Position numbers and translations under genes: made by a program
Notes under the pieces: generated by a model
The model's input: only the letters and a program-made list of their open reading frames with translations
Told to the model about the DNA's origin: nothing
The model's database searches: none
Virus record (IMG/VR): IMGVR_UViG_2923360383_000008
Length of the DNA: 41,720 nt
Direction: 5' to 3' (one strand)
From: a virus
Taxonomy: Duplodnaviria; Heunggongvirae; Uroviricota; Caudoviricetes
Shown: positions 1 through 18,242 of the stretch, one piece after another
Layout: the number at the start of each line of letters is the position of its first letter
Numbering within the stretch: position 1 is the first letter of the stretch

Positions 1-1143
1 CTATGCTGTTTTGATATCTACGATAATCCAGTCTTTACCACGATCATCATTGTATCGGTCGGTCATTTTTCTGGATTTATGGCCTAACAACTTTTGCGTA
101 TCCAGACCCTGTTCCCGATATAACCGTTCTGACAGAGATCGCTGCTCATGAAATGTGGGCGCAGTTCCTTGCTCCCATTTTATGCCACATTTTTCCCGGG
201 CCTTTTTAAAAGCCGTTGTCAGAGTATTCGCAGAAACCTGGTCTCCTCTGTTTGCTTGAGAGGTAGTGTGACGGTAATGGACCAGATATTTACTAACAAC
301 AGCATCCCTGCACTGAGATATAACTTCACGAAGGGTAATATTCAGAGCATCGCATTTCAGGTTAAGCGGAATAGCAAGTTTTGAACCGGTTTTTTCCTGA
401 GTAATGTGCAACATGTCGTCCCATATATCAGAGAATTTCAAATTGCAGATATCGCCTAAACGTTGTCCAGTAACAAGAGCAAGTAGCATGCCGCATTTTA
501 AATAGGGCTGCCGTCTGCTTACGCTGTCAAATATTGCCTGCCATTCGGGCAGTGACAATCTTTGGCGGTTTACTCGATTTCGTGGTTGTTTTGTTGCCTG
601 CGCTGGGTTAAATCCTGGCGGAACATGTCCTGCGTGTTGTGCTTCTTTGAAGACGTCGATCAACACCATTCTCACGACTTGCGCCATCCTGTTATGACCT
701 TCAGCCTTTACAGCATCAATTATTTCGGCAATATCAAGTGCGGTAATATCCTTGAGGTGTTGCATTCCACAATGCTCACGGAAAAGACGAATGGGTTTGC
801 CTTTTTGCCGATAGGAGTTGGGTCTTAGTTCATTATGTTGCAGCCTGTCCTCTTGGATAGAAATATATTTATCAAGCCATTCTGTCACCGTAATGTCTGA
901 GCGCCTGCCTTTCATTCTTTCCAGACGCTCATTGACGCTTAATATTTGTCTGGTACGTTGTTCAGCAATAATGGTATTTGCTTCAGTAGCAACTTGTTTT
1001 GCTTCATTCTCATCAGTTCCTAAGCTATGAAAACGACCGGATAGTGGATGTTTGTATTGCCAATATACCTTTCCGGTTCGCTTATCTAATTTGCAATATA
1101 AATTGGGTATAGAGATTTTGTGAGATCGGGGTCTAGCAGCCAT
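1..1143 (-). CDS. int: Tyrosine integrase (lambda Int family)
   Basis: 380-aa ORF; C-terminus ...HEQRSLSERLYREQG...GHKS...DDRGKDW matches the HxxR...Y catalytic region of lambda Int; stop codon at window positions 1-3; first gene of prophage arm. Confidence 0.9.
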   Translation of the reverse strand: MAARPRSHKISIPNLYCKLDKRTGKVYWQYKHPLSGRFHSLGTDENEAKQVATEANTIIAEQRTRQILSVNERLERMKGRRSDITVTEWLDKYISIQEDRLQHNELRPNSYRQKGKPIRLFREHCGMQHLKDITALDIAEIIDAVKAEGHNRMAQVVRMVLIDVFKEAQHAGHVPPGFNPAQATKQPRNRVNRQRLSLPEWQAIFDSVSRRQPYLKCGMLLALVTGQRLGDICNLKFSDIWDDMLHITQEKTGSKLAIPLNLKCDALNITLREVISQCRDAVVSKYLVHYRHTTSQANRGDQVSANTLTTAFKKAREKCGIKWEQGTAPTFHEQRSLSERLYREQGLDTQKLLGHKSRKMTDRYNDDRGKDWIIVDIKTA

Positions 1144-1369
1144 CAGCGATTATCCTTTGGAGTTTTGGGTTTGCGTTTATTGGGAGTTGCGGTTCTGCAA
1201 GCGTTCCTACAAAACGGGAATTTCGGTCAATCATCCAGTAGCGACCAACTTTTATAGCGGGTGGGGCCATCATTTTCCCTTGCGCGTATTTTTTCAGAAC
1301 TCGCTCACTTGGTGCTAAGTCCCCAAATTCTTCTTTAGCCCAGTCCTGTAAAGTGATTAGTCGAGACAT
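1133..1369 (-). CDS. xis: Excisionase-like small DNA-binding protein
   Basis: 78-aa ORF immediately upstream of and overlapping int; strong RBS AGGAGG before ATG; typical int-xis arrangement. Confidence 0.7.
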   Translation of the reverse strand: MSRLITLQDWAKEEFGDLAPSERVLKKYAQGKMMAPPAIKVGRYWMIDRNSRFVGTLAEPQLPINANPKLQRIIADGC

Positions 1370-1508
1370 TTGTCCTCCTCTTAGCTGCTGAGGGAGTTTG
1401 TGACCGATATATCTGACATGATATTAAGCTCATGGCAGGTACATCTCTTGACTGGTCATAGAGATAAATTTAATGCTGAGAAATGCAGTATTGAATTTAT
1501 CAATTTTT

Positions 1509-1748
1509 CTATTTCCTGCGCATGTCACGTAACTTCTTAATGTGTTCTGCCGTTTCGATCTCTTCTGCTATCCGATCTGCATCAGCTTTATTCACAGGTT
1601 CAAAGTCATGATTAAAGCGGAACATGCTGGCGATACATGTTCTGCCTTTTCGGATGTAGTGAACTTTGTTGTGGGTAGAACGCAGGATTTTGCAGGGAGT
1701 GCCGTGGTGGTCGACGTACCAGGTGTTAGGGTCAATCACTCTGAACAT
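1509..1748 (-). CDS. Hypothetical protein
   Basis: 79-aa ORF co-oriented with early-left operon; overlaps downstream end of next gene by 17 nt. Confidence 0.45.
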   Translation of the reverse strand: MFRVIDPNTWYVDHHGTPCKILRSTHNKVHYIRKGRTCIASMFRFNHDFEPVNKADADRIAEEIETAEHIKKLRDMRRK

Positions 1749-2058
1749 TCTTGACCTTGTGTTGTGCGGATTGATATTCAGTGCTGATATTCACCTTTAT
1801 AGCGAACACCTTTACCGGTTTATCGCCAAAGTGCGGATGTGTGATTGTCTTCACTTCATATCCGTCATACGGAACATCAATTCTGCGACTGGAATCGTCG
1901 CGCTTCGGATATCCCTTTGTGATAATCAGGCGGTCATATTCCCGGAACATAATTCGCTTATTCCAGTAGTCATTACACAAGCGATACTCTTCCGTTTTCT
2001 CTCCGCGAATCATGGCATCGAAGTATTCACTTTTAACAGCAAGTTGCAGGTTAGCCAT
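1732..2058 (-). CDS. ASCH/PUA-like domain protein (putative)
   Basis: N-terminus MANLQLAVKSEYFDAMIRGEKTEEYR resembles ASCH-domain N-termini; ATG overlaps stop of upstream gene (TGATG). Confidence 0.45.
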   Translation of the reverse strand: MANLQLAVKSEYFDAMIRGEKTEEYRLCNDYWNKRIMFREYDRLIITKGYPKRDDSSRRIDVPYDGYEVKTITHPHFGDKPVKVFAIKVNISTEYQSAQHKVKNVQSD

Positions 2059-2279
2059 CACTTAATCCCCCTTTGTTTGCGGATAAGCTCCAGATCTTGC
2101 TGGCAACTGGCGCAAGTCCGACAACCCTGAACGGCCAGGCGTCTTCGTTCATCTATCGGATCGCCACACTCACAACAATGAGTGGCAGATACAGCCAGGT
2201 AGTTCAGGCGGCGCATTTTTATTGCTGTGTTGCGCTGTAATTCTTCTATTTCTGATGCTGAATCAATGATGTCTGCCAT
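2058..2279 (-). CDS. TraR/DksA-family C4 zinc-finger protein
   Basis: 73 aa with CxxC...17 aa...CxxC (CCECGDPIDERRRLAVQGCRTCASC) characteristic of phage TraR/DksA-like proteins. Confidence 0.6.
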   Translation of the reverse strand: MADIIDSASEIEELQRNTAIKMRRLNYLAVSATHCCECGDPIDERRRLAVQGCRTCASCQQDLELIRKQRGIK

Positions 2280-2331
2280 CTTTCATTAATCCCTGAACTG
2301 TTGGTTAATACGCTTGAGGGTGAATGCGAAC

Positions 2332-2355
2332 AATAAAAAAGGAGCCTGTAGCTCC
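2332..2355 (-). terminator. Putative intrinsic terminator (leftward transcript)
   Basis: Hairpin GGAGC-ctgta-GCTCC followed on minus strand by TTTTTTATT. Confidence 0.3.
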
Positions 2356-2665
2356 CTGATAATTTTGCTTTTCATGTTCATCGTTCCTTAAAGACGCCGT
2401 TTAACATGCCGATTGCCAGGCTTAAATGAGTCGGTGTGAATCCCTTCAGCGTTACCGTTTCGCGGTGCTTCTTCAGTACGCTACGGCAAATGTCATTGAC
2501 GTTTTTGGAAACTGCTGTCTGACTTTTTTGATTTCAGAATTAGCCTGACGGGCAATGCTGCGAAGGGCGTTTTCTTGCTGAGGTGTCACTGAACAAGCCC
2601 CATGTCGGCAAGCATAAGCACACAGAATATGAAGCCCGCTGCCAGAAAAATGCATTCAGTGGTTG

Positions 2666-2857
2666 TCATACCTGGTCTCTCTCATCTGCTTCTGCTTTCG
2701 CCACCATCATTTCCAGCTTTTGTGAAAGGGATGTGGCTAACGTATGAAATTCTTCGTCTGTTTCTGCTGGTATTGGCACAAACCTGACTCCAATTTGAGC
2801 AAGGCTATGTGCCAAATCAATACTCGTTCTTAACTCAACAGGAGATGCTTTGTGCAT
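2666..2857 (-). CDS. Hypothetical protein
   Basis: 63-aa ORF in early-left operon orientation; stop overlaps ATG of a 27-codon hydrophobic peptide ORF (ATGA). Confidence 0.35.
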   Translation of the reverse strand: MHKASPVELRTSIDLAHSLAQIGVRFVPIPAETDEEFHTLATSLSQKLEMMVAKAEADERDQV

Positions 2858-3008
2858 ACCGCCCCCCGTTTATTATTTATCTCCTCAGCCAGCCGCTGGG
2901 CTTTCAGCGGATTTCGGATAACAGAAAGACCGTGAAATACCCAGCCTCGCTTTGTAACGGAGTAGACGAAAGTGATCGCGCCTACCCGGATATTATCGTG
3001 AGGATGGG

Positions 3009-3689
3009 TCATCGCCATTGCTCTCCAAATACAAAACCAATTTCAGCCAGTGCTTCGTCCATTTTTTCGATGAACTCCGGCACCATCTCGTCAAAACTCG
3101 CCATGTACTTTTCATCCCGCTCAACCACGACATAATGCAGGCCTTCACGCTTCATTCGTGGGTCATAGTTGGCAAAGTACCAGGCATCTTTTCGTGTCAC
3201 CCACATGCTGTACTGCACCTGGGCCATGTAAGCCGACTTTATGGCCTCGAAACCACCGAGCCGGAACTTCATGAAATCCCGGGAGGTAAACGGGCATTTC
3301 AGCTCAAGGCCATTGCCGTCACTGCATAAACCATCGGGAGAGCAGGCGGTGCGCATACTTTCGTCGCGATAGATGATCGGGGATTCAGTAACATTCACGC
3401 CGGAAGTGAATTCAAACAGGGTTCTGGCGTCGTTCTCGTACTGTTTTCCCCACGCCAGCGCCTTAGCATTAACTTCCGGAGCCACACCGGTGCAAACCTC
3501 AGCCAGCAGGGTGTGGAAGTAGGACATTTTCATGTCAGGCCACTTCTTTCCTGAGCGGGGCTTTGCTATCACGTTGTGAACTTCTGAAGCGGTGATGACG
3601 CCGAGCCGTAATTTGTGCCATGCATCATCCCCCTGTTCGACAGCTCTCACGTCGATCCCGGTACGCTGCAGGATAATGTCCGGTGTCAT
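3009..3689 (-). CDS. exo: Lambda exonuclease (Red alpha)
   Basis: 226 aa; sequence [40 protein letters not shown]... matches lambda Exo as I recall it almost residue for residue. Confidence 0.95.
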
Positions 3690-4471
3690 GCTGCCACCTT
3701 CTGCTCAGTGGCTTTCTGTTTCAGGAATCCAAGAGCTTTCACTGCTTCGGCCTGTGTCAGTTCTGACGATGCGCGAATGTCGCGGCGAAATATCTGGGAA
3801 CAGAGCGGCAATAAGTCGTCATCCCATGTTTTGTCCAGGGCAATCAGCAGAGTGTTAATCTCCTGCATGGTTTCATCGTTAACCGGAGTGATGTCGCGTT
3901 CCGGCTGACGTTCTGCAGTGTATGCGGTATTTTCGACAATGCGCTCGGCTTCATCCTTGTCATAGATACCAGCAAATCCGAAGGCCAGACGGGCACACTG
4001 AATCATGGCTTTATGCCGTAACATCCGTTTGGGATGCGACTGCCACGGCCCCGTGATTTCTCTGCCTTCGCGGGTTTTGAATGGTTCGCGGCGGCATTCA
4101 TCCATCCACTCGGTAACGCAGATCGGATGATTGCGGTCTTTGCGGTAAATCCGGCATGTACATGATTCATTGTCCTGCTCAAAGTCCATACCATCAAACT
4201 GCTGGTTTTCATTGATGATGCGGGACCAGCCATCAACGCCCACCACCGGAACAATGCCGTTCTGCTTATCAGGGAAGGCGTAAATTTCTTTCGTCCACGG
4301 ATTAAGGCCGTACTGGTTGGCGACGATCAACAATGCGATGAACTGCGCATCGCTGGCATCACCTTTAAATGCCGTCTGGCGAAGAGTGGTGATCAGTTCC
4401 TGTGGGTCGACAGAATCCATGCCGACACGTTCAGCCAGCTTCCCTGCCAGCGTTGCGAGTGCTGTACTCAT
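3686..4471 (-). CDS. bet: Recombination protein Bet (Red beta)
   Basis: 261 aa; [48 protein letters not shown]... matches lambda Bet; ATGA overlap with exo. Confidence 0.95.
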
Positions 4472-4476
4472 CCGTT

Positions 4477-4773
4477 TTATACCTCTGAATCAATATCAGC
4501 CTGATGGTGAGCAATGGTTTCAACTATGTACCGGATGTGTTCTGCCATGCGCTCCTGAAACTCAACATCGTCATCAAACGCACGGGTAATGGCTTTTTTG
4601 CTGGCCCCGTGGCGTTGTAAATGATCGATGCATAGCGATTCAAACAGGTGCTGGGGCAGGCCTTTTTCCATGTCGTCTGCCAGTTCTGCCTCTTTCTCTT
4701 CACGGGCGATCTGCTGGTAGTGACGCGCCCAGCTCTGAGCCTCAAGACGATCCTGAATGTAATAAGCGTTCAT
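4477..4773 (-). CDS. gam: Gam, RecBCD inhibitor (short GamS form)
   Basis: 98 aa [21 protein letters not shown]... matches lambda GamS; in-frame stop upstream so no long GamL form. Confidence 0.9.
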
Positions 4774-4848
4774 GGCTGAACTCCTGAAAATGGCTGTGAA
4801 AATATCGCCCGCGAAATGCCAGGCTGATTAGGAAAACAGGAAAGGGGG

Positions 4849-4992
4849 TTAGTGAATGCTTTTGCTTGATCTCAGTTTCAGTATTAATATCCATTTTTTA
4901 TAAGCGTCGACGGCCTCACGAAACATCTTTTCATCGCCAATAAAAGTGGCGATAGTGAATTTAGTCTGGATAGCCATAATTGTTTGATCCAT
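4849..4992 (-). CDS. kil: Kil (host-killing / FtsZ inhibitor) protein
   Basis: 47-aa reading [47 protein letters not shown]; start overlaps end of cIII as in lambda. Confidence 0.8.
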
Positions 4993-5125
4993 TTTTTGGG
5001 ACTCCTGGCTGATTAAGTATGTCGATAAGGCGTTTCCATCCGTCACGTAATTTACGGGTGATTCGTTCAAGTAAAGATTCGGAAGGGCAGCCAGCAACAG
5101 GCCACCCTGCAATGGCATATTGCAT
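4961..5125 (-). CDS. cIII: cIII, FtsH protease inhibitor
   Basis: Hand translation of minus strand gives [54 protein letters not shown], matching lambda cIII apart from one residue; not in ORF track because <60 aa. Confidence 0.85.
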   Translation of the reverse strand: MQYAIAGWPVAGCPSESLLERITRKLRDGWKRLIDILNQPGVPKNGSNNYGYPD

Positions 5126-5197
5126 GGTGTGCTCCTTATTTATACATAACGAAAAACGCCTCGAGTGAAGCGTAATTGGTATGCGGTAACGCCGCGC

Positions 5198-5566
5198 TCA
5201 GGCGGCCTTGATAGTCATATCATCTGAATCAAATATTCCTGATGTATCGATATCGGTAATTCTTATTCCTTCACTACCATCCATTGGAGGCCATCCTTCC
5301 TGACCATTTCCATCATTCCAGTCGAACTCACACACAACACCATATGCATTTAAGTCGCTTGAAATTGCTATAAGCAGAGCATGTTGCGCCAGCATGATTA
5401 ATACAGCATTTAATACAGAGCCGTGTTTATTGAGTCGGTATTCAGAGTCTGACCAGAAATTATTAATCTGGTGAAGTTTTTCCTCTGTCATTACGTCATG
5501 GTCAATTTCAATTTCTATTGATGCTTTCCAGTCGTAATCAATGATGTATTTTTTGATGTTTGACAT
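5198..5566 (-). CDS. ea10: Ea10-like early protein
   Basis: 122-aa ORF at the position and size of lambda ea10 between cIII and ral. Confidence 0.6.
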   Translation of the reverse strand: MSNIKKYIIDYDWKASIEIEIDHDVMTEEKLHQINNFWSDSEYRLNKHGSVLNAVLIMLAQHALLIAISSDLNAYGVVCEFDWNDGNGQEGWPPMDGSEGIRITDIDTSGIFDSDDMTIKAA

Positions 5567-5584
5567 CTATTCATATCCTCATAG

Positions 5585-5612
5585 ATAAAAAATCGCCCTC
5601 ACACTGGAGGGC
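5585..5612 (-). terminator. Putative intrinsic terminator in early-left operon
   Basis: Hairpin GCCCTC-acactg-GAGGGC followed on minus strand by GATTTTTTAT. Confidence 0.35.
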
Positions 5613-5748
5613 AAAGAAGATTTCCAATAATCAGAACAAGTCGGCTCCTGTTTAGTTACGAGCGACATTGCTCCGTGTATTCACTCGTTGGAATGAATAC
5701 ACAGTGCAGTGTTTATTCTGTTATTTATGCCAAAAATAAAGGCCACTA

Positions 5749-5949
5749 TCAGGCAGCTTTGTTGTTCTGTTTACCAAGTTCTCTGGCAATCATTGCCGTC
5801 GTTCGTATTGCCCATTTATCGACATATTTCCCATCTTCCATTACAGGAAACATTTCTTCAGGCTTAACCATGCATTCCGATTGCAGCTTGCATCCATTGC
5901 ATCGTTTGAATTGTCCACACCATTGATTTGTATCAATAGTCGTAGTCAT
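5749..5949 (-). CDS. ral: Ral restriction-alleviation protein
   Basis: 66 aa MTTTIDTNQWCGQFKRCNGCKLQSECMVKPEEMFPVMEDGKYVDKWAIRTTAMIARELGKQNNKAA matches lambda Ral. Confidence 0.85.
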   Translation of the reverse strand: MTTTIDTNQWCGQFKRCNGCKLQSECMVKPEEMFPVMEDGKYVDKWAIRTTAMIARELGKQNNKAA

Positions 5950-6019
5950 ACGGATAGTCCTGGTATTGTTCCATCACATCTTGAGGATGCTCTTCGAACT
6001 CTTCAAATTCTTCTTCCAT
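5933..6019 (-). CDS. Small acidic ORF (lambda orf28-like)
   Basis: 28 codons MEEEFEEFEEHPQDVMEQYQDYPYDYDY found by hand translation; overlaps ral start. Confidence 0.3.
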   Translation of the reverse strand: MEEEFEEFEEHPQDVMEQYQDYPYDYDY

Positions 6020-6162
6020 ATATCACCTTAAATAGTGGATTGCGGTAGTAAAGATTGTGCCTGTCTTTTAACCACATCAGGCTCGGTGGTTCTCGTGTAC
6101 CCCTACAACGAGAAATCGGATAAACTCTATTCACCCCTACAGAGAGCAAAAGAGAAACGCCG

Positions 6163-7469: not shown

Positions 7470-8222
7470 TTATGCTGCAAGTCTCTTAACCCAAGTCTCT
7501 CTTTTGGAGAATGGTAGAACTTGGCTTGATTCATGGAAGAGTAAGGAGAGTTGTTGCATTTGATCACCAATTGCTTCGCTGTCTATAACAACAAATCTGT
7601 TGTTATACTCCTCACTTGAAGCTTTAAGATCAATTAGTTTCCCAAGCAATGAGTAAGCACTATTCCAGCTTCCTCCGTGTTTCACGCTTGATGTAAAAAC
7701 GTATTTAGGTATGTCGGTTTTTATTGTTACAGGGACGGTAATTTGATGTCCACTCAAGCCATATACGTTTTCACGAAGAGAAAGTGCGTCTCTAAGCTCT
7801 GTGTGATATAGATAATCAATAACCATACTTTCAAACTTTTCAGCTTGAACTGGCTGATACCAGTCTAACGACAAAGTTGATGCGAGTATACCAGCTCTAA
7901 TTATGTTCGATGTAATCGCACCGACATCCTTTTCTGTTGCCCAAGCAATGATTTCTCCTCGAGCATTGAGTTCTGCGCCTTCTTTAAGCAGTAATTGTCG
8001 TATCTCATCAAGTCGTTTTTTGGTAAGCGAGATCCCTCTTGCCTCCATATTCATTAAGGCATCGCATCTGTCACTAACTAAATACCTACCATTGACTTCA
8101 CGGATAAAGGCACCGACATGCTCTCCATCATCACAGTAAGTGAATGGACTGATAATTCTCAAGGTCTTGCCTATTGGATGGCATTCGAAACCTAGTTGTG
8201 AGATCACTGTTGAGCACATCAT
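7470..8222 (-). CDS. Hypothetical protein, distal gene of rexAB-slot operon (candidate phage-exclusion factor)
   Basis: 250-aa ORF, ATGA-coupled to upstream gene; AT-rich relative to rest of prophage; no motif I recognise. Confidence 0.6.
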   Translation of the reverse strand: MMCSTVISQLGFECHPIGKTLRIISPFTYCDDGEHVGAFIREVNGRYLVSDRCDALMNMEARGISLTKKRLDEIRQLLLKEGAELNARGEIIAWATEKDVGAITSNIIRAGILASTLSLDWYQPVQAEKFESMVIDYLYHTELRDALSLRENVYGLSGHQITVPVTIKTDIPKYVFTSSVKHGGSWNSAYSLLGKLIDLKASSEEYNNRFVVIDSEAIGDQMQQLSLLFHESSQVLPFSKRETWVKRLAA

Positions 8223-8776
8223 ATTCCAAACCCCATTTGCCCCGACTCATCTTCAAGCGGTAAAGGTATTCTCCCAGAGTAAGTTATGTTCAGATGTTTA
8301 CAGAAGTAATTCCAATACCCTACCAGGTCATCTGGGTTTATGTCATCTTCGATTGGAAACGCTATTCTATCACTATAGTATCCAGCTTCTTCATAGTATA
8401 CATGGTAGTGAGCACCGTAAATGATATCTTGGTACTTCGGATGATCGACCTTGTAACTATTCGTGTGTTTGTCAAAGTGATAGGTATCTACCGCGAAAAC
8501 CCTCTTGTTATGATAGAAAGCAATAATATTTATTTTAGGGTAAGAAATCGGGTCATCAGGTTCTGAATCCTGATCTGGTTTCCATTTCAGTTCAAACTTT
8601 AGCCCTTGTATAGGTATACAATCCTCATCCAAGGGGATGATATGGGCTTGTAGCCACATATCAGAGCGACTTGGTTTCTGTTTCCATTTAACGCCAGAAA
8701 AGTTAACTATTTTTTTACAATAAAGTACTTTATCAACTTCTACTTGGCTTGGCTGATAATCATCTATTTTTGCCAA
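8219..8776 (-). CDS. Hypothetical protein, proximal gene of rexAB-slot operon (candidate phage-exclusion factor)
   Basis: 185-aa ORF beginning 40 nt downstream of cI stop; apparent TTG start (first ATG is codon 40), so start uncertain; acidic, Tyr/His-rich; no motif I recognise. Confidence 0.55.
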   Translation of the reverse strand: MAKIDDYQPSQVEVDKVLYCKKIVNFSGVKWKQKPSRSDMWLQAHIIPLDEDCIPIQGLKFELKWKPDQDSEPDDPISYPKINIIAFYHNKRVFAVDTYHFDKHTNSYKVDHPKYQDIIYGAHYHVYYEEAGYYSDRIAFPIEDDINPDDLVGYWNYFCKHLNITYSGRIPLPLEDESGQMGFGI

Positions 8777-12182: not shown

Positions 12183-12214
12183 AGGCCTGCAGGTAATCGC
12201 AGGCCTTTTTATTT
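12183..12214 (+). terminator. tR2-like intrinsic terminator
   Basis: 8-bp stem AGGCCTGC...GCAGGCCT followed by TTTTTATTT between ren and ninB. Confidence 0.5.
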
Positions 12215-12230: not shown

Positions 12231-12671
12231 ATGAAAAAACTAACCTTTGAAATTCGATCTCCGGCACATCAGCAAAACGCTATTCACGCAGTACAGCAAA
12301 TCCTTCCAGACCCAACCAAACCAATCGTAGTAACCATTCAGGAACGCAACCGCAGCTTAGACCAAAACAGGAAGCTATGGGCCTGCTTAGGTGACGTCTC
12401 TCGTCAGGTTGAATGGCATGGTCGCTGGCTGGATGCAGAAAGCTGGAAGTGTGTGTTTACCGCAGCATTAAAGCAGCAGGATGTTGTTCCTAACCTTGCC
12501 GGGAATGGCTTTGTGGTAATAGGCCAGTCAACCAGCAGGATGCGTGTAAGCGAATTTGCGGAGCTATTAGAGCTTATACAGGCATTCGGTACAGAGCGTG
12601 GCGTTAAGTGGTCAGACGAAGCGCGACTGGCTCTCGAATGGAAAGCGCGATGGGGAGATCGGGCTGCATGA
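12231..12671 (+). CDS. ninB: NinB recombination protein
   Basis: 146 aa MKKLTFEIRSPAHQQNAIHAVQQILPDPTKP... matches lambda NinB. Confidence 0.85.
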   Translation: MKKLTFEIRSPAHQQNAIHAVQQILPDPTKPIVVTIQERNRSLDQNRKLWACLGDVSRQVEWHGRWLDAESWKCVFTAALKQQDVVPNLAGNGFVVIGQSTSRMRVSEFAELLELIQAFGTERGVKWSDEARLALEWKARWGDRAA

Positions 12672-13195
12672 CTATCAAATCAAATACGCCAGCACACGAC
12701 AAGGACTGCTGGCAAACGCCGCTTTGGCTTTTTGATGCACTGGATATTGAGTTTGGATTCTGGCTGGATTCGGCAGCGAGCGACAAAAATGCTCTGTGCG
12801 CTCACTGGCTAACTGAGGACGACGACGCGCTCAATTCTGAGTGGGTAAGCCACGGTGCAATCTGGAATAACCCACCGTACAGCAATATCAGGCCGTGGGT
12901 GGAAAAAGCCGCTGAGCAGTGTATACAACAGCGACAGACGGTAGTGATGCTTGTGCCAGAGGATATGTCTGTCGGATGGTTCAGCAAGGCTCTGGAGAGT
13001 GTTGACGAAGTTCGTATTATCACTGATGGACGGATTAATTTTATCGAACCATCGACAGGGCTGGAGAAGAAGGGAAACAGCAAAGGCTCCATGCTGCTGA
13101 TTTGGCGACCGTTCATCAGTCCTCGACGGATGTTTACTACCGTATCCAAAGCGGCATTGATGGCGATCGGGCAGGGCGTCAGGAGGGCTGCATGA
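12668..13195 (+). CDS. Phage DNA N6-adenine methyltransferase (Dam-like)
   Basis: NPPY motif ([10 protein letters not shown]) typical of amino-methyltransferases; ATGA overlap with ninB; no adjacent restriction gene. Confidence 0.75.
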
Positions 13196-13368
13196 GACGA
13201 CAGCGACGAAGCATCACCGACATAATCTGCGAAAACTGCAAATACCTTCCAACGAAACGCTCCAGAAATAAACGCAAGCTAATCCCAAAAGAATCTGACG
13301 TAAAAACCTTCAATTACACAGCCCACCTGTGGGATATCCGGTGGCTAAGATATCGTGCGAGGAAATGA
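13192..13368 (+). CDS. ninE: NinE-like protein
   Basis: 58 aa [27 protein letters not shown]... at ninE position; ATGA-coupled. Confidence 0.5.
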
Positions 13369-13712: not shown

Positions 13713-13899
13713 CCCATCTCAATCCCTTCAATACCTGAAAGAAAGCATAGAGCGGGCTTCAATGTGCACAGAGTGGATTCTATCTAGGTTTAGCGCATAC
13801 AGAAGATTGCCGGTAAAGGGCATGCCAAGCAAGTCGATGCTGCATATGCAAAAGAATGCGCGCTGGAAGGTATGGCGAGAACACAGGTTATGTGGCTGA
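13705..13899 (+). CDS. Hypothetical nin-region protein
   Basis: 64-aa ORF overlapping upstream stop. Confidence 0.4.
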
Positions 13900-13918
13900 A
13901 AGAGGGGGTTATTAAGGC

Positions 13919-14281
13919 GTGAATACCTACAGCATCACATTACCCTGGCCTCCGAGCAATAATCGCTATTACCGCCATAATCGCGGGCGCACGCACGTCA
14001 GCGCAGAGGGGCAGGCATACCGCGATAACGTCGCCCGAATCATTAAAAACGCAATGCTGGATATCGGCCTGGCTATGCCTGTGAAAATCCGCATTGAGTG
14101 CCACATGCCGGATCGCCGTCGCCGTGACCTGGATAATCTGCAAAAAGCCGCTTTTGACGCACTCACTAAAGCAGGTTTCTGGCTGGATGATGCTCAGGTC
14201 GTTGATTACCGCGTTGTGAAGATGCCTGTTACCAAAGGTGGGAGGCTGGAACTGACCATCACCGAAATGGGGAATGAATGA
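13919..14281 (+). CDS. rusA: RusA Holliday-junction resolvase
   Basis: 120 aa [34 protein letters not shown]... matches E. coli/DLP12 RusA as I recall; GTG start. Confidence 0.9.
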
Positions 14282-14418: not shown

Positions 14419-14503
14419 AGTCAGAGATAACAATCAACTAATACTGTTTTGTTGATTTTTGCTTGTAATTGGCGTTCTGGTCTGATTTTTGTGGAGTAAG
14501 TTG

Positions 14504-14887
14504 ATGCGTGATATTCAGATGGTTCTTGAGCGTTGGGGTGCGTGGGCGGCTAATAATCATGAAGATGTGACCTGGTCGTCCATTGCCGCCGGTTTTAAGG
14601 GATTAATTCCTTCAAAAGTAAAATCTCGCCCGCAATGTTGTGACGATGACGCGATGATCATTTGCGGGTGCATGGCCCGTCTGAAAAAGAACAACAGCGA
14701 TTTACACGATTTATTAGTAGATTATTATGTATGTGGTATGACATTCATGTCACTGGCAAGTAAGCATTGCTGCTCGGATGGTTATATCGGGAAAAGGTTA
14801 CAGAAGGCTGAGGGCATAATTGAAGGGATGTTAATGGCATTAGATATCCGGTTAGATATGGATATCGTTGCTAATAATTCTAATTGA
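14504..14887 (+). CDS. Q-like late-gene antiterminator
   Basis: 127 aa from ATG 14504 (RBS GGAG); Cys-rich ([12 protein letters not shown]...CC); located between rusA and lysis module; ORF-track start 14489 is a TTG. Confidence 0.8.
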
Positions 14888-15075: not shown

Positions 15076-16158
15076 TTAGAACTGATAAACCAGACCTACA
15101 GCGACGATGTCGTCGGTATCAATACCAGCTGTTTTGGTAAACTTACTATCGTCAATTAAGTTGATTTTGTAATCAACAAAAGTGGACATGTTTTTATTAA
15201 AGTAGTAAGTAGCACCGACATCGACATACTTGACTAAGTCTCGGTCACCATGAACACCAAGGTCTTTACCTTTTGACTGAAGGTAAGCAACAGATGGACG
15301 CAGACCGAAGTCAAACTGATATTGTGCTACTGCTTCAAAGTTTTGTGCTTTGTTTGCAATATGGTTATTACCAAAAACGGTCATATTCTGAGTTTCAGAA
15401 TATGTGGTAGCCAGATAGATATTGTTCGCATCATATTTCAGGCCTGCAGCCCATACTTCCGCATTTTTGCCGGAGGCATTGAATTTGCTCTTACCATAGG
15501 CGACCTGACCGTCAGTGCGATCTGATTTAGCATAGGTTGCACCCACGCCGAATCCTTCATACTCATAAGTAGTGGAGAAACCGAAACCATCACCATTGGC
15601 TTCAGTTACGTCAGTGCGGTCATTTTTACCCTGATACTGAGCAGCAAAGTTCAGGCCATCGACCAGACCAAAGAAGTCGTTGTTACGATAAGTTGCAACA
15701 CCAGTAGTGCGACCAGTCATGAACACATCTGTTTGGGTCCAGGTATCACCACCGAATTCTGGCAGAACGTCAGTCCACGCACCGATGTCGTATGCTACAC
15801 CGTAGTTACGGCCGTAATCGATTGAGCCGTAATCACCAAATTTCAGGCCTGCAAATGCAAGACGGGTTTTGTCTTTGGAAGAACCTTGAGATTCAGCACG
15901 GTTGCCTTTGAATTCATATTCCCACTGACCGAAACCAGTCAGTTGATCGTTGATTTGGGTTTCACCTTTGAAGCCAAGACGGGCATAAGTAGTATCACCA
16001 TCATCTGCATCATTAGAGGAGAAGTAGTGCTTGGCATTAACTTTCCCGTATAGATCCAGCTTGTTACTGTCTTTATTATAAATTTCAGCTGCCTGAGCAG
16101 ACATCGCCATCAGTACTGATGCAGCTACAGCAGAAATTGCCACTGTTAATTTTTTCAT
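15076..16158 (-). CDS. OmpC/NmpC/Lc-type general porin (lysogenic-conversion moron)
   Basis: 360 aa from [14 protein letters not shown] (signal peptide ...[10 protein letters not shown]), C-terminal ...VGLVYQF beta-barrel terminus; antisense to the late operon. Confidence 0.9.
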
Positions 16159-16585
16159 TGTACGCCCTTTTTTTGAACTATTATTAAAAAATGATGTCAC
16201 TGCGCGATAAATATTCATCTAATCAATGTGATTATTTCAAGATGTAAGTTTTAGTTTCTCATTTAATTTGTGAAGTAGATCTCTATTTTTATCTGAACCT
16301 TTTCTATCTAATCCTATTCATGGCTCTTGTCTGAACAAAAATAAATCTATTAGCTAATTTATATTAATGGCACTTATTTATAAGTGCTCTATAATTCTTT
16401 AGCTTAATTTAAACAAACTAAAAATAACATTGGAAATTATTAACTGGTTATTTGTTGAAGTTTTCTTATGCATTTGTGGTGGTGTTTTGAACACTCGGTG
16501 GCATTCTCACAAATATCATTTAGTAGTTTACGTACGTAAAAAATTGGTTATGCTGTTAAGAGTGGTTACTTCGTCACACAGCTTA

Positions 16586-16962: not shown

Positions 16963-17459
16963 TGCCTCCATCATTACGAAAAGCCGTTGCTGCTGCTATT
17001 GGTGGCGGAGCAATTGCTATAGCATCAGTGTTAATCACTGGCCCAAGTGGTAACGATGGTCTGGAAGGTGTCAGCTACATACCATACAAAGATATTGTTG
17101 GTGTATGGACTGTATGTCACGGGCATACAGGAAAAGACATCATGCTCGGTAAAACGTATACCAAAGCAGAATGCAAAGCCCTCCTGAATAAAGACCTTGC
17201 CACGGTCGCCAGACAAATTAACCCGTACATCAAAGTCGATATACCGGAAACAATGCGCGGCGCTCTTTACTCATTCGTTTACAACGTGGGTGCTGGCAAT
17301 TTCAGAACATCGACGCTTCTTCGCAAAATAAACCAGGGCGATATCAAAGGCGCATGTGATCAGCTACGTCGCTGGACATATGCTGGCGGTAAGCAATGGA
17401 AAGGTCTCATGACTCGTCGTGAGATTGAGCGTGAAATCTGTTTGTGGGGTCAGCAATGA
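16962..17459 (+). CDS. SAR endolysin (T4-lysozyme-like muramidase with N-terminal signal-anchor-release domain)
   Basis: 165 aa; N-terminal Gly/Ala-rich hydrophobic stretch [18 protein letters not shown] then lysozyme-like core. Confidence 0.9.
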
Positions 17460-17948: not shown

Positions 17949-18242
17949 TTATTGTGAGCAATACACACGCGCTTCCAGCGGAGTATAAATGCCTAAAGTA
18001 ATAAAACCGAGCAATCCATTTACGAATGTTTGCTGGGTTTCTGTTTTAACAACATTTTCTGCACCACCACAAATTTTTGCTGCATCGACAGTTTTCTTCT
18101 GCCCAATTCCCGAAACGAAGAAATGATGGGTGATGGTTTCCTTTGGTGTTACTGCTGTAGGTTTGTTTCCAACAGTAAACGTCTGTTGAGCACATCCTGT
18201 AATAAGCATTGCCAGAGCGGCAGAAAACAACATTTTTTTCAT
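17949..18242 (-). CDS. bor: Bor lipoprotein (serum-resistance moron)
   Basis: 97 aa MKKMLFSAALAMLITGCAQQTFTV...EARVYCSQ matches lambda Bor; lipobox ITGC. Confidence 0.85.
   Translation of the reverse strand: MKKMLFSAALAMLITGCAQQTFTVGNKPTAVTPKETITHHFFVSGIGQKKTVDAAKICGGAENVVKTETQQTFVNGLLGFITLGIYTPLEARVYCSQ

Follow-up and report, generated by a model that had tools for sequence, protein, structure and literature searches.

A predicted orphan GATC methyltransferase of the PF05869 family in the nin region of a lambda-like prophage

We analysed a gene in the nin region of the viral record IMGVR_UViG_2923360383_000008, a 41,720-nucleotide stretch of DNA referred to here as the window. The gene very probably encodes an intact orphan N6-adenine methyltransferase of the PF05869/TIGR01712 family, orthologous to M.EcoVT2Dam, that would methylate GATC, be expressed as a delayed-early lytic function and supplement the Dam enzyme of the host. 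The gene itself is already known: it is annotated by the NCBI pipeline, it has its own Pfam and TIGRFAM families, and its orthologue from a Shiga toxin (Stx) phage was cloned and characterised in 2001.

Results

Family membership of the methyltransferase

The open reading frame (ORF) is intact, comprises 175 codons and a stop, and has exactly the coordinates given in the original prediction (Table 1). Its product matched the Pfam family PF05869, 'DNA N-6-adenine-methyltransferase (Dam)', with an E value of 3.7e-65 and a score of 219.1 bits against a cut-off of 28.1, covering positions 1–167 of the 169 in the profile. The match to the NCBIfam equivalog TIGR01712, 'phage N-6-adenine-methyltransferase', was similarly complete (1.2e-79, 265.6 bits against a cut-off of 97.05, positions 1–165 of 165). 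The protein also matched PHROG 111, 'DNA methyltransferase' (8.3e-88), and its best match in PADLOC was to the 'orphan methyltransferase' models (1.6e-19). Judged by these profiles, the gene is a full member of PF05869/TIGR01712, above the curated cut-offs and far beyond chance. At E ≤ 0.01, PF05869 was the sole Pfam match, and PF02086 (MethyltransfD12), the family of E. coli Dam, yielded none. A longer frame is possible from a GTG at 12608, but the ATG at 12668 is favoured because its product aligns with the Pfam profile from residue 4 and with the TIGRFAM profile from residue 2, and because the RefSeq start is identical.

Relationship to M.EcoVT2Dam

The closest characterized relative is encoded by orf32 of phage VT2-Sakai (NP_050531.1). 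The two proteins are of equal length and identical at 174 of 175 residues, and in both cases the gene is joined to ninB on one side and to ninE on the other through ATGA junctions. The sole substitution, D51 in the window protein versus A51 in the orf32 product, falls in a variable column of the family alignment. The carriers differ, being a lambda-like siphovirus-type prophage in the window and a short-tailed Stx phage in the case of VT2-Sakai. Identical or near-identical copies also occur in Phi24B, 933W-type Stx phages, HK97, HK140 and Sf101.

M.EcoVT2Dam was reportedly cloned by Radlinska and Bujnicki in 2001. According to a later paper, the enzyme is 'known to target 5'-GATC-3'' (PMC6602927), and it appears alongside P1, T-even and HP1 in a list of phage Dam-like enzymes (PMC7556043). 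In addition, the 'dam' clone CM2 of Phi24B is 100% identical to NP_050531.1 (PMC3342100). Within the 60.9-kb VT2-Sakai genome, orf32 is the only annotated methyltransferase, and the 2806-aa polyvalent protein of that phage contains no methyltransferase domain. The description of the window protein as 'Dam-like' in the original prediction is therefore apt for the target, GATC being reported for the 174/175-identical M.EcoVT2Dam, but not for the ancestry, which is that of PF05869 and not of PF02086.

Kinship with three further enzymes was considered and rejected. M.EcoMIV, a prophage 'Dam homolog' of the ST131 strain EC958 that is reported to be untranscribed in the lysogen, belongs to PF02086 (PMC4659465). 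M.EcoGIX is a plasmid-borne, single-strand-specific enzyme, and Hia5 belongs to a different, DPPY/FxGxG family. The Hia5 paper nowhere mentions VT2, HP1 or PF05869, and the paper on phage Lula has no Dam or methylase content.

Conserved motifs and predicted structure

We aligned the window protein with 27 homologues sharing 59–83% identity. All 46 residues that are invariant in the 27-member alignment are kept in the window protein. These include T17, P18, F29, F31, L33, D34 and A36 in addition to the NPPY tetrapeptide. The conserved elements follow the order W-x-T-P (residues 15–18), F-G-F-x-L-D-x-A-A (29–37) and N-P-P-Y (68–71), succeeded by a conserved C-terminal half with G121-R122, K139-G140 and I-W-R-P at 145–148. 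By analogy with M.TaqI, this arrangement would correspond to the motif order X-I-IV of gamma-class enzymes, and the N-terminal elements may serve in binding the cofactor, S-adenosylmethionine (AdoMet). Searches of PDB sequences with the single protein and with the 27-sequence profile returned chance matches only (E > 0.1), and no member of the family appears to have a solved structure that is detectable by sequence or profile.

Operon context and gene junctions

The window comprises a lambda-like prophage with int, exo, bet, sieB, N, cI, O, P, ren, the nin genes, Q, a porin gene, and lysis, head and tail genes. In the region of interest the order is O-P-ren-[hairpin]-ninB-methyltransferase-ninE-ninX-rusA-ylcG-Q. 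Profile matches to NinB, NinE, NinX, RusA and Q around the methyltransferase gene bear out its assignment to the nin region. The hairpin between ren and ninB has a predicted RNA folding energy of −16.2 kcal/mol (z = −2.97) and stands in what we take, from its location, to be the position of lambda tR2. Among the promoter-like sites in the region (7 found versus 7.8 expected), none stands out.

The methyltransferase gene is thus located as are delayed-early genes of lambdoid nin regions: in the pR operon, 3' of a tR2-type hairpin and in tight ATGA packing. Because it lies in the pR operon downstream of this hairpin, the gene would be transcribed only after loss of the repressor and antitermination by N. 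Its position indicates that it is most likely a delayed-early lytic gene that is silent in the lysogen. Consistent with this, the dam transcript of Phi24B changes significantly on induction (PMC3342100).

At its 5' end, the methyltransferase ATG shares the tetranucleotide ATGA with the TGA stop of ninB (12668–12671); at its 3' end, the methyltransferase TGA stop shares another with the ATG of ninE (13192–13195). The ORF, its NPPY motif, both overlaps and the NinB and NinE profile matches all agree with the earlier description of an NPPY-motif methyltransferase coupled between ninB and ninE. The coupling is not peculiar to this gene: 4-nt overlaps occur at five of nine junctions, among them O/P, P/ren and rusA/ylcG, and ATGA junctions have been described as common to lambdoid nin regions in general (PMC8022706).

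Both junctions lie within copies of an exact 11-bp direct repeat, GGGCTGCATGA, and an AGGAGG Shine–Dalgarno sequence is found just 5' of the copy at the methyltransferase/ninE junction. NinB and the methyltransferase both end in R-A-A-stop, and an -AA C-terminus is also present in many family members of other genera in the alignment. In VT2-Sakai, GGGCTGCATGA occurs at the 5' junction and not at the 3' junction. A phage search using a synthetic ninB-ninE fusion yielded, among the matches listed, no phage lacking dam and having just one GGGCTGCATGA junction. In Salmonella P22-like phages, ninB and ninE are separated by ∼137 bp of other sequence, and the ninE junction is different. The repeat could be a joint for module exchange or a mere by-product of a conserved Ala-Ala-stop coupling signal; its role as a precise insertion or deletion joint is neither supported nor excluded by the fusion search.

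Table 1. Features of the methyltransferase gene and its surroundings in the window.
Feature	Coordinates	Strand	Basis or remarks
Methyltransferase gene; phage N6-adenine DNA methyltransferase, 175 aa	12668..13195	+	PF05869 / TIGR01712; orthologue of M.EcoVT2Dam
ninB (Orf-family recombination mediator)	12231..12671	+	PF05772 NinB, 1.1e-54; RefSeq annotation, matching Nissle 1917 gene
ninE	13192..13368	+	PF05322 NinE, 1.8e-41
NPPY (N68-P69-P70-Y71), catalytic motif IV of N6-adenine methyltransferases	12869..12880	+	Read from the sequence; invariant in 27 homologues
W15-Q-T17-P18, N-terminal 'xTP', resembling motif X of gamma-class amino-methyltransferases	12710..12721	+	
F29-G-F-W-L-D34-S-A-A-S38, motif I-like, putative AdoMet-binding strand/loop	12752..12781	+	
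Terminator-like hairpin, 8-bp stem with 6 GC pairs, then TTTTTATTT	12183..12206	+	Between ren and ninB; terminator scan
GGGCTGCATGA, copy 1 of exact 11-bp direct repeat	12661..12671	+	Spans ATGA of ninB stop and methyltransferase start
GGGCTGCATGA, copy 2 of exact 11-bp direct repeat	13185..13195	+	Spans ATGA of methyltransferase stop and ninE start

Absence of a restriction partner

According to profile searches, neither the flanking genes nor the early region encode a restriction-endonuclease domain, and the RefSeq annotation of the matching prophage in E. coli Nissle 1917 lists no nuclease of the restriction–modification (R-M) type. The early region encodes Int, Exo, Bet, SieB, N, cI and other lambda-type functions. 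The designation of the gene as an orphan is thereby upheld, as no nuclease that would make it half of a Type II R-M system was found in the flanks, the early region or the Nissle annotation.

Distribution

The 528 nt of the gene are 100% identical in E. coli strains Nissle 1917 (WP_000153286.1), ATCC 11775, NU14 and many others. Of 5426 complete E. coli genomes, 1565 (∼29%) contain a match of at least 95% identity, and close matches occur in 244 phage records, including Stx1- and Stx2-converting phages, HK140, Sf101 and lambda-like gut isolates. Identical copies are carried by the isolated plaque-forming phages ev207, ev017 and PhiR57_1. NinB and NinE flank the gene in all of the best 25 phage records and all of the best 15 E. 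coli genome records. Searches with the protein sequence place the family in 1906 phage records and, in a large protein collection, show it spread through the Enterobacterales. Prophage members in Yersinia and Providencia, at 65–68% identity, lie in other early-region contexts with neither NinB nor an adjacent nuclease. The linkage to NinB is therefore not conserved beyond lambdoid phages of the E. coli type.

The family also reaches far beyond phages, PF05869 domains having been reported in fungal DIRS/Ngaro retrotransposons and in oomycete N6-methyladenine (6mA) methyltransferases. Separately, genes resembling the restriction-alleviation gene lar share an early-region cluster with a PF05869 methyltransferase in the VT2-Sakai record (15792–16034) and in two Providencia prophages (4448–4633 and 4258–4443). 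This co-occurrence hints that accessory slots holding such a methyltransferase may collect anti-restriction functions.

Prophage surroundings

Over 23 kb, the window is 99.7% identical to the Nissle 1917 prophage adjoining icd. Its left arm (1..6139) is complete, with exo, bet and an intact integrase gene of 380 codons, whereas in the Nissle 1917 prophage the integrase is truncated, ISEc52 has inserted and the recombination genes are lost. The DNA of the window therefore derives from a related strain whose prophage has decayed less.

Two overlapping minus-strand genes, 7470..8222 and 8219..8776, occupy the site that rexAB has in lambda, between N/sieB and cI. Their products, of 250 aa (DUF1828) and 185 aa (weak DUF6978), match the PADLOC candidate defence system PDC-M24 (PDC-M24B, 4.7e-10; PDC-M24A, 4.8e-4), and the pair is probably a prophage anti-phage module expressed with cI. 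A 380-aa porin of the OmpC/NmpC type is encoded on the minus strand (15076..16218), opposite to the genes between which it lies, the Q antiterminator gene (14489..14887) and the lysis genes. The gene is placed like nmpC of prophage DLP12 and is lysogenic-conversion cargo; its Nissle 1917 counterpart bears the annotation 'porin OmpC'. Just 3' of the lysis cassette, also on the opposite strand (∼17949..18290, minus), is a gene for an Iss/Bor-type serum-survival lipoprotein (RefSeq; Nissle locus 21282–21575). Finally, the 206-bp gap between ninX and rusA contains an N-terminally truncated DUF1364 pseudogene (∼13830–13922; Nissle locus 17166–17255), a remnant that shows past deletion or recombination within the nin region.

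Discussion

Proposed role of the methyltransferase

We propose that the enzyme would methylate the adenine of 5'-GATC-3', with AdoMet as the methyl donor. Its transcription would originate at pR and depend on N-mediated read-through of the tR2-like terminator, and would be off in the lysogen. Once produced, the methyltransferase would supplement host Dam on replicating phage DNA and thereby yield progeny genomes that are fully methylated at GATC. Full methylation, in turn, would confer resistance to enzymes of the MboI/DpnII type and would keep phage DNA from being seen by MutH-directed repair as an unmethylated or hemimethylated substrate during replication and recombination. The enzyme could also allow growth in hosts that lack Dam. 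For lambda and P22, which have no such gene, virion DNA is reported to be under-methylated by host Dam, the probable cause being that replication outpaces the enzyme (PMC8022706). A phage-encoded GATC methylase would close this gap for the 124 GATC sites of the window. This number is mildly low relative to the 197 expected under a Markov model (ratio of 0.63); several other palindromes are similarly low and we draw no conclusion from it. Protection from host restriction, one of the functions raised in the original prediction, is plausible only with respect to enzymes blocked by G(m6A)TC.

For readers of E. coli methylomes, the consequence is that no new motif is to be expected from this gene, its mark being masked by that of host Dam. 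Because the target equals the host Dam motif, a comparison of methylomes from a lysogen and a cured strain in a dam+ background would mislead: no new motif would appear in a dam+ host even with a fully active enzyme, so that its absence refutes nothing. GATC methylases are encoded by many lambdoid phages whose host is itself dam+, and the reason for this is a modest and tractable question.

Several points weigh against the proposal. The GATC specificity is taken from the literature on a 99%-identical enzyme, and activity of the window protein is itself a prediction. The equation of M.EcoVT2Dam with orf32 rests on elimination together with secondary citations. Further, what a phage would gain from a second GATC methylase when its host is dam+ is hypothetical, and the Phi24B orthologue was detected with an antiserum to lysogen cultures, leading its discoverers to suggest a role in lysogeny (PMC3342100). 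On the structural side, the alignment yielded an AlphaFold model of moderate quality, with a mean predicted local distance difference test (pLDDT) score of 71.9 and a predicted template modelling (pTM) score of 0.74. Confidence is low for residues 1–14 and 32–47, and pLDDT falls below 50 for residues 32–41, at the putative AdoMet loop. A Foldseek search with the model found no match at E ≤ 0.001.

Alternative explanations

The original prediction had also suggested that the methyltransferase may alter host gene regulation in the lysogen. The antiserum data on Phi24B, from which its authors speculate that the protein supports lysogeny, favour such epigenetic reprogramming by an expressed prophage gene, as does the necessity of host Dam for stable 933W lysogeny, as reported in a study cited in PMC3342100. 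By contrast, the gene belongs to the pR operon, which cI represses, and is preceded by a terminator-like hairpin, promoter-like sites in the region are no more frequent than expected, and GATC is already methylated by the host, so that no new mark would arise. Moreover, the Phi24B transcript responded significantly to induction, and lysogen cultures include spontaneously induced cells. We consequently consider a regulatory role in the lysogen decidedly unlikely. Equally improbable in our view is a relaxed or non-GATC specificity like that of the non-specific prophage adenine methylases M.EcoGII or Hia5, which would make the enzyme a broad anti-restriction device. This idea draws on the small size of the protein, 175 aa with no separate target-recognition domain (TRD) beside structural neighbours of 382–610 aa, and on precedent: methyltransferases borne by prophages and plasmids are often described as promiscuous (PMC4659465), and the enzyme of Serratia phage OS31 is another example (PMC7556043). 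Nevertheless, GATC specificity is reported for the 99%-identical M.EcoVT2Dam, from which the window protein differs only by the D51A substitution in a variable column, and Hia5 and M.EcoGII belong to other families.

We give hardly any credence to the gene being the modification half of an R-M system whose nuclease is unrecognised or lies elsewhere in the prophage. What suggests it is the general association of methyltransferases with R-M systems and weak PADLOC 'MTase_II' matches (5.3e-08). Against it, the best PADLOC match is to the orphan models, NinB and NinE are the neighbours in every one of the best phage and E. coli records noted above, the early-region ORFs are lambda-type with no R-M nuclease among them, and the distant Yersinia and Providencia members also lack an adjacent nuclease. 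That the gene is an inactive relic in a decaying prophage is extremely unlikely as well. Although the region holds at least one remnant gene, the DUF1364 pseudogene annotated in Nissle 1917 between ninX and rusA, the ORF is full-length, retains all family-invariant residues and is identical to copies in plaque-forming phages, and the gene set of the window is apparently complete and lambda-like from int to tail fibre.

Comparison with known enzymes

The orphan GATC methyltransferase proposed here has counterparts in virulent phages. 'Dam-like N6-adenine methyltransferases' of T1-like phages (Drexlerviridae) are homologous to the window protein in the catalytic core, with ∼31–37% identity over residues 5–147/168, as detected by tblastn only; they belong to the same PF05869 superfamily and are longer (∼241 aa). 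T1 Dam reportedly methylates GATC, as described by Auer and Schweiger in 1984. The Dam enzyme of phage HP1 methylates GATC as well. HP1 has also been named among phages with Dam-like genes (PMC7556043).

The gamma-class enzymes M.TaqI, CamA, M.BseCI and HsdM, putative structural neighbours of the window protein, are 382–610 aa in length, two to three times longer than its 175 aa, and share 9–13% identity with it. They possess large C-terminal or separate recognition domains or subunits, whereas the window protein has no separate TRD and appears to be a TRD-less, M.TaqI-like minimal enzyme. How such an enzyme of ∼20 kDa reads GATC is a modest and tractable structural question. Recognition may be unconventional, for example through an obligate dimer that reads the palindrome via loops of the catalytic domain near G121-R122 and K139-G140, or through action on single-stranded DNA or recombination intermediates together with the coupled NinB/Orf protein, though we regard this as unlikely. 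In that case, the role of the enzyme would lie in phage recombination or evasion of mismatch repair and not in anti-restriction.

Finally, the alpha-class GATC methyltransferases of PF02086, namely E. coli Dam, T4 Dam and DpnM, have no Pfam-level relationship with the window protein. By comparison with these enzymes, the window protein has what appears to be a different motif order, has no inserted TRD and is ∼100 residues shorter. The GATC target that it is predicted to share with them looks like convergent specificity.
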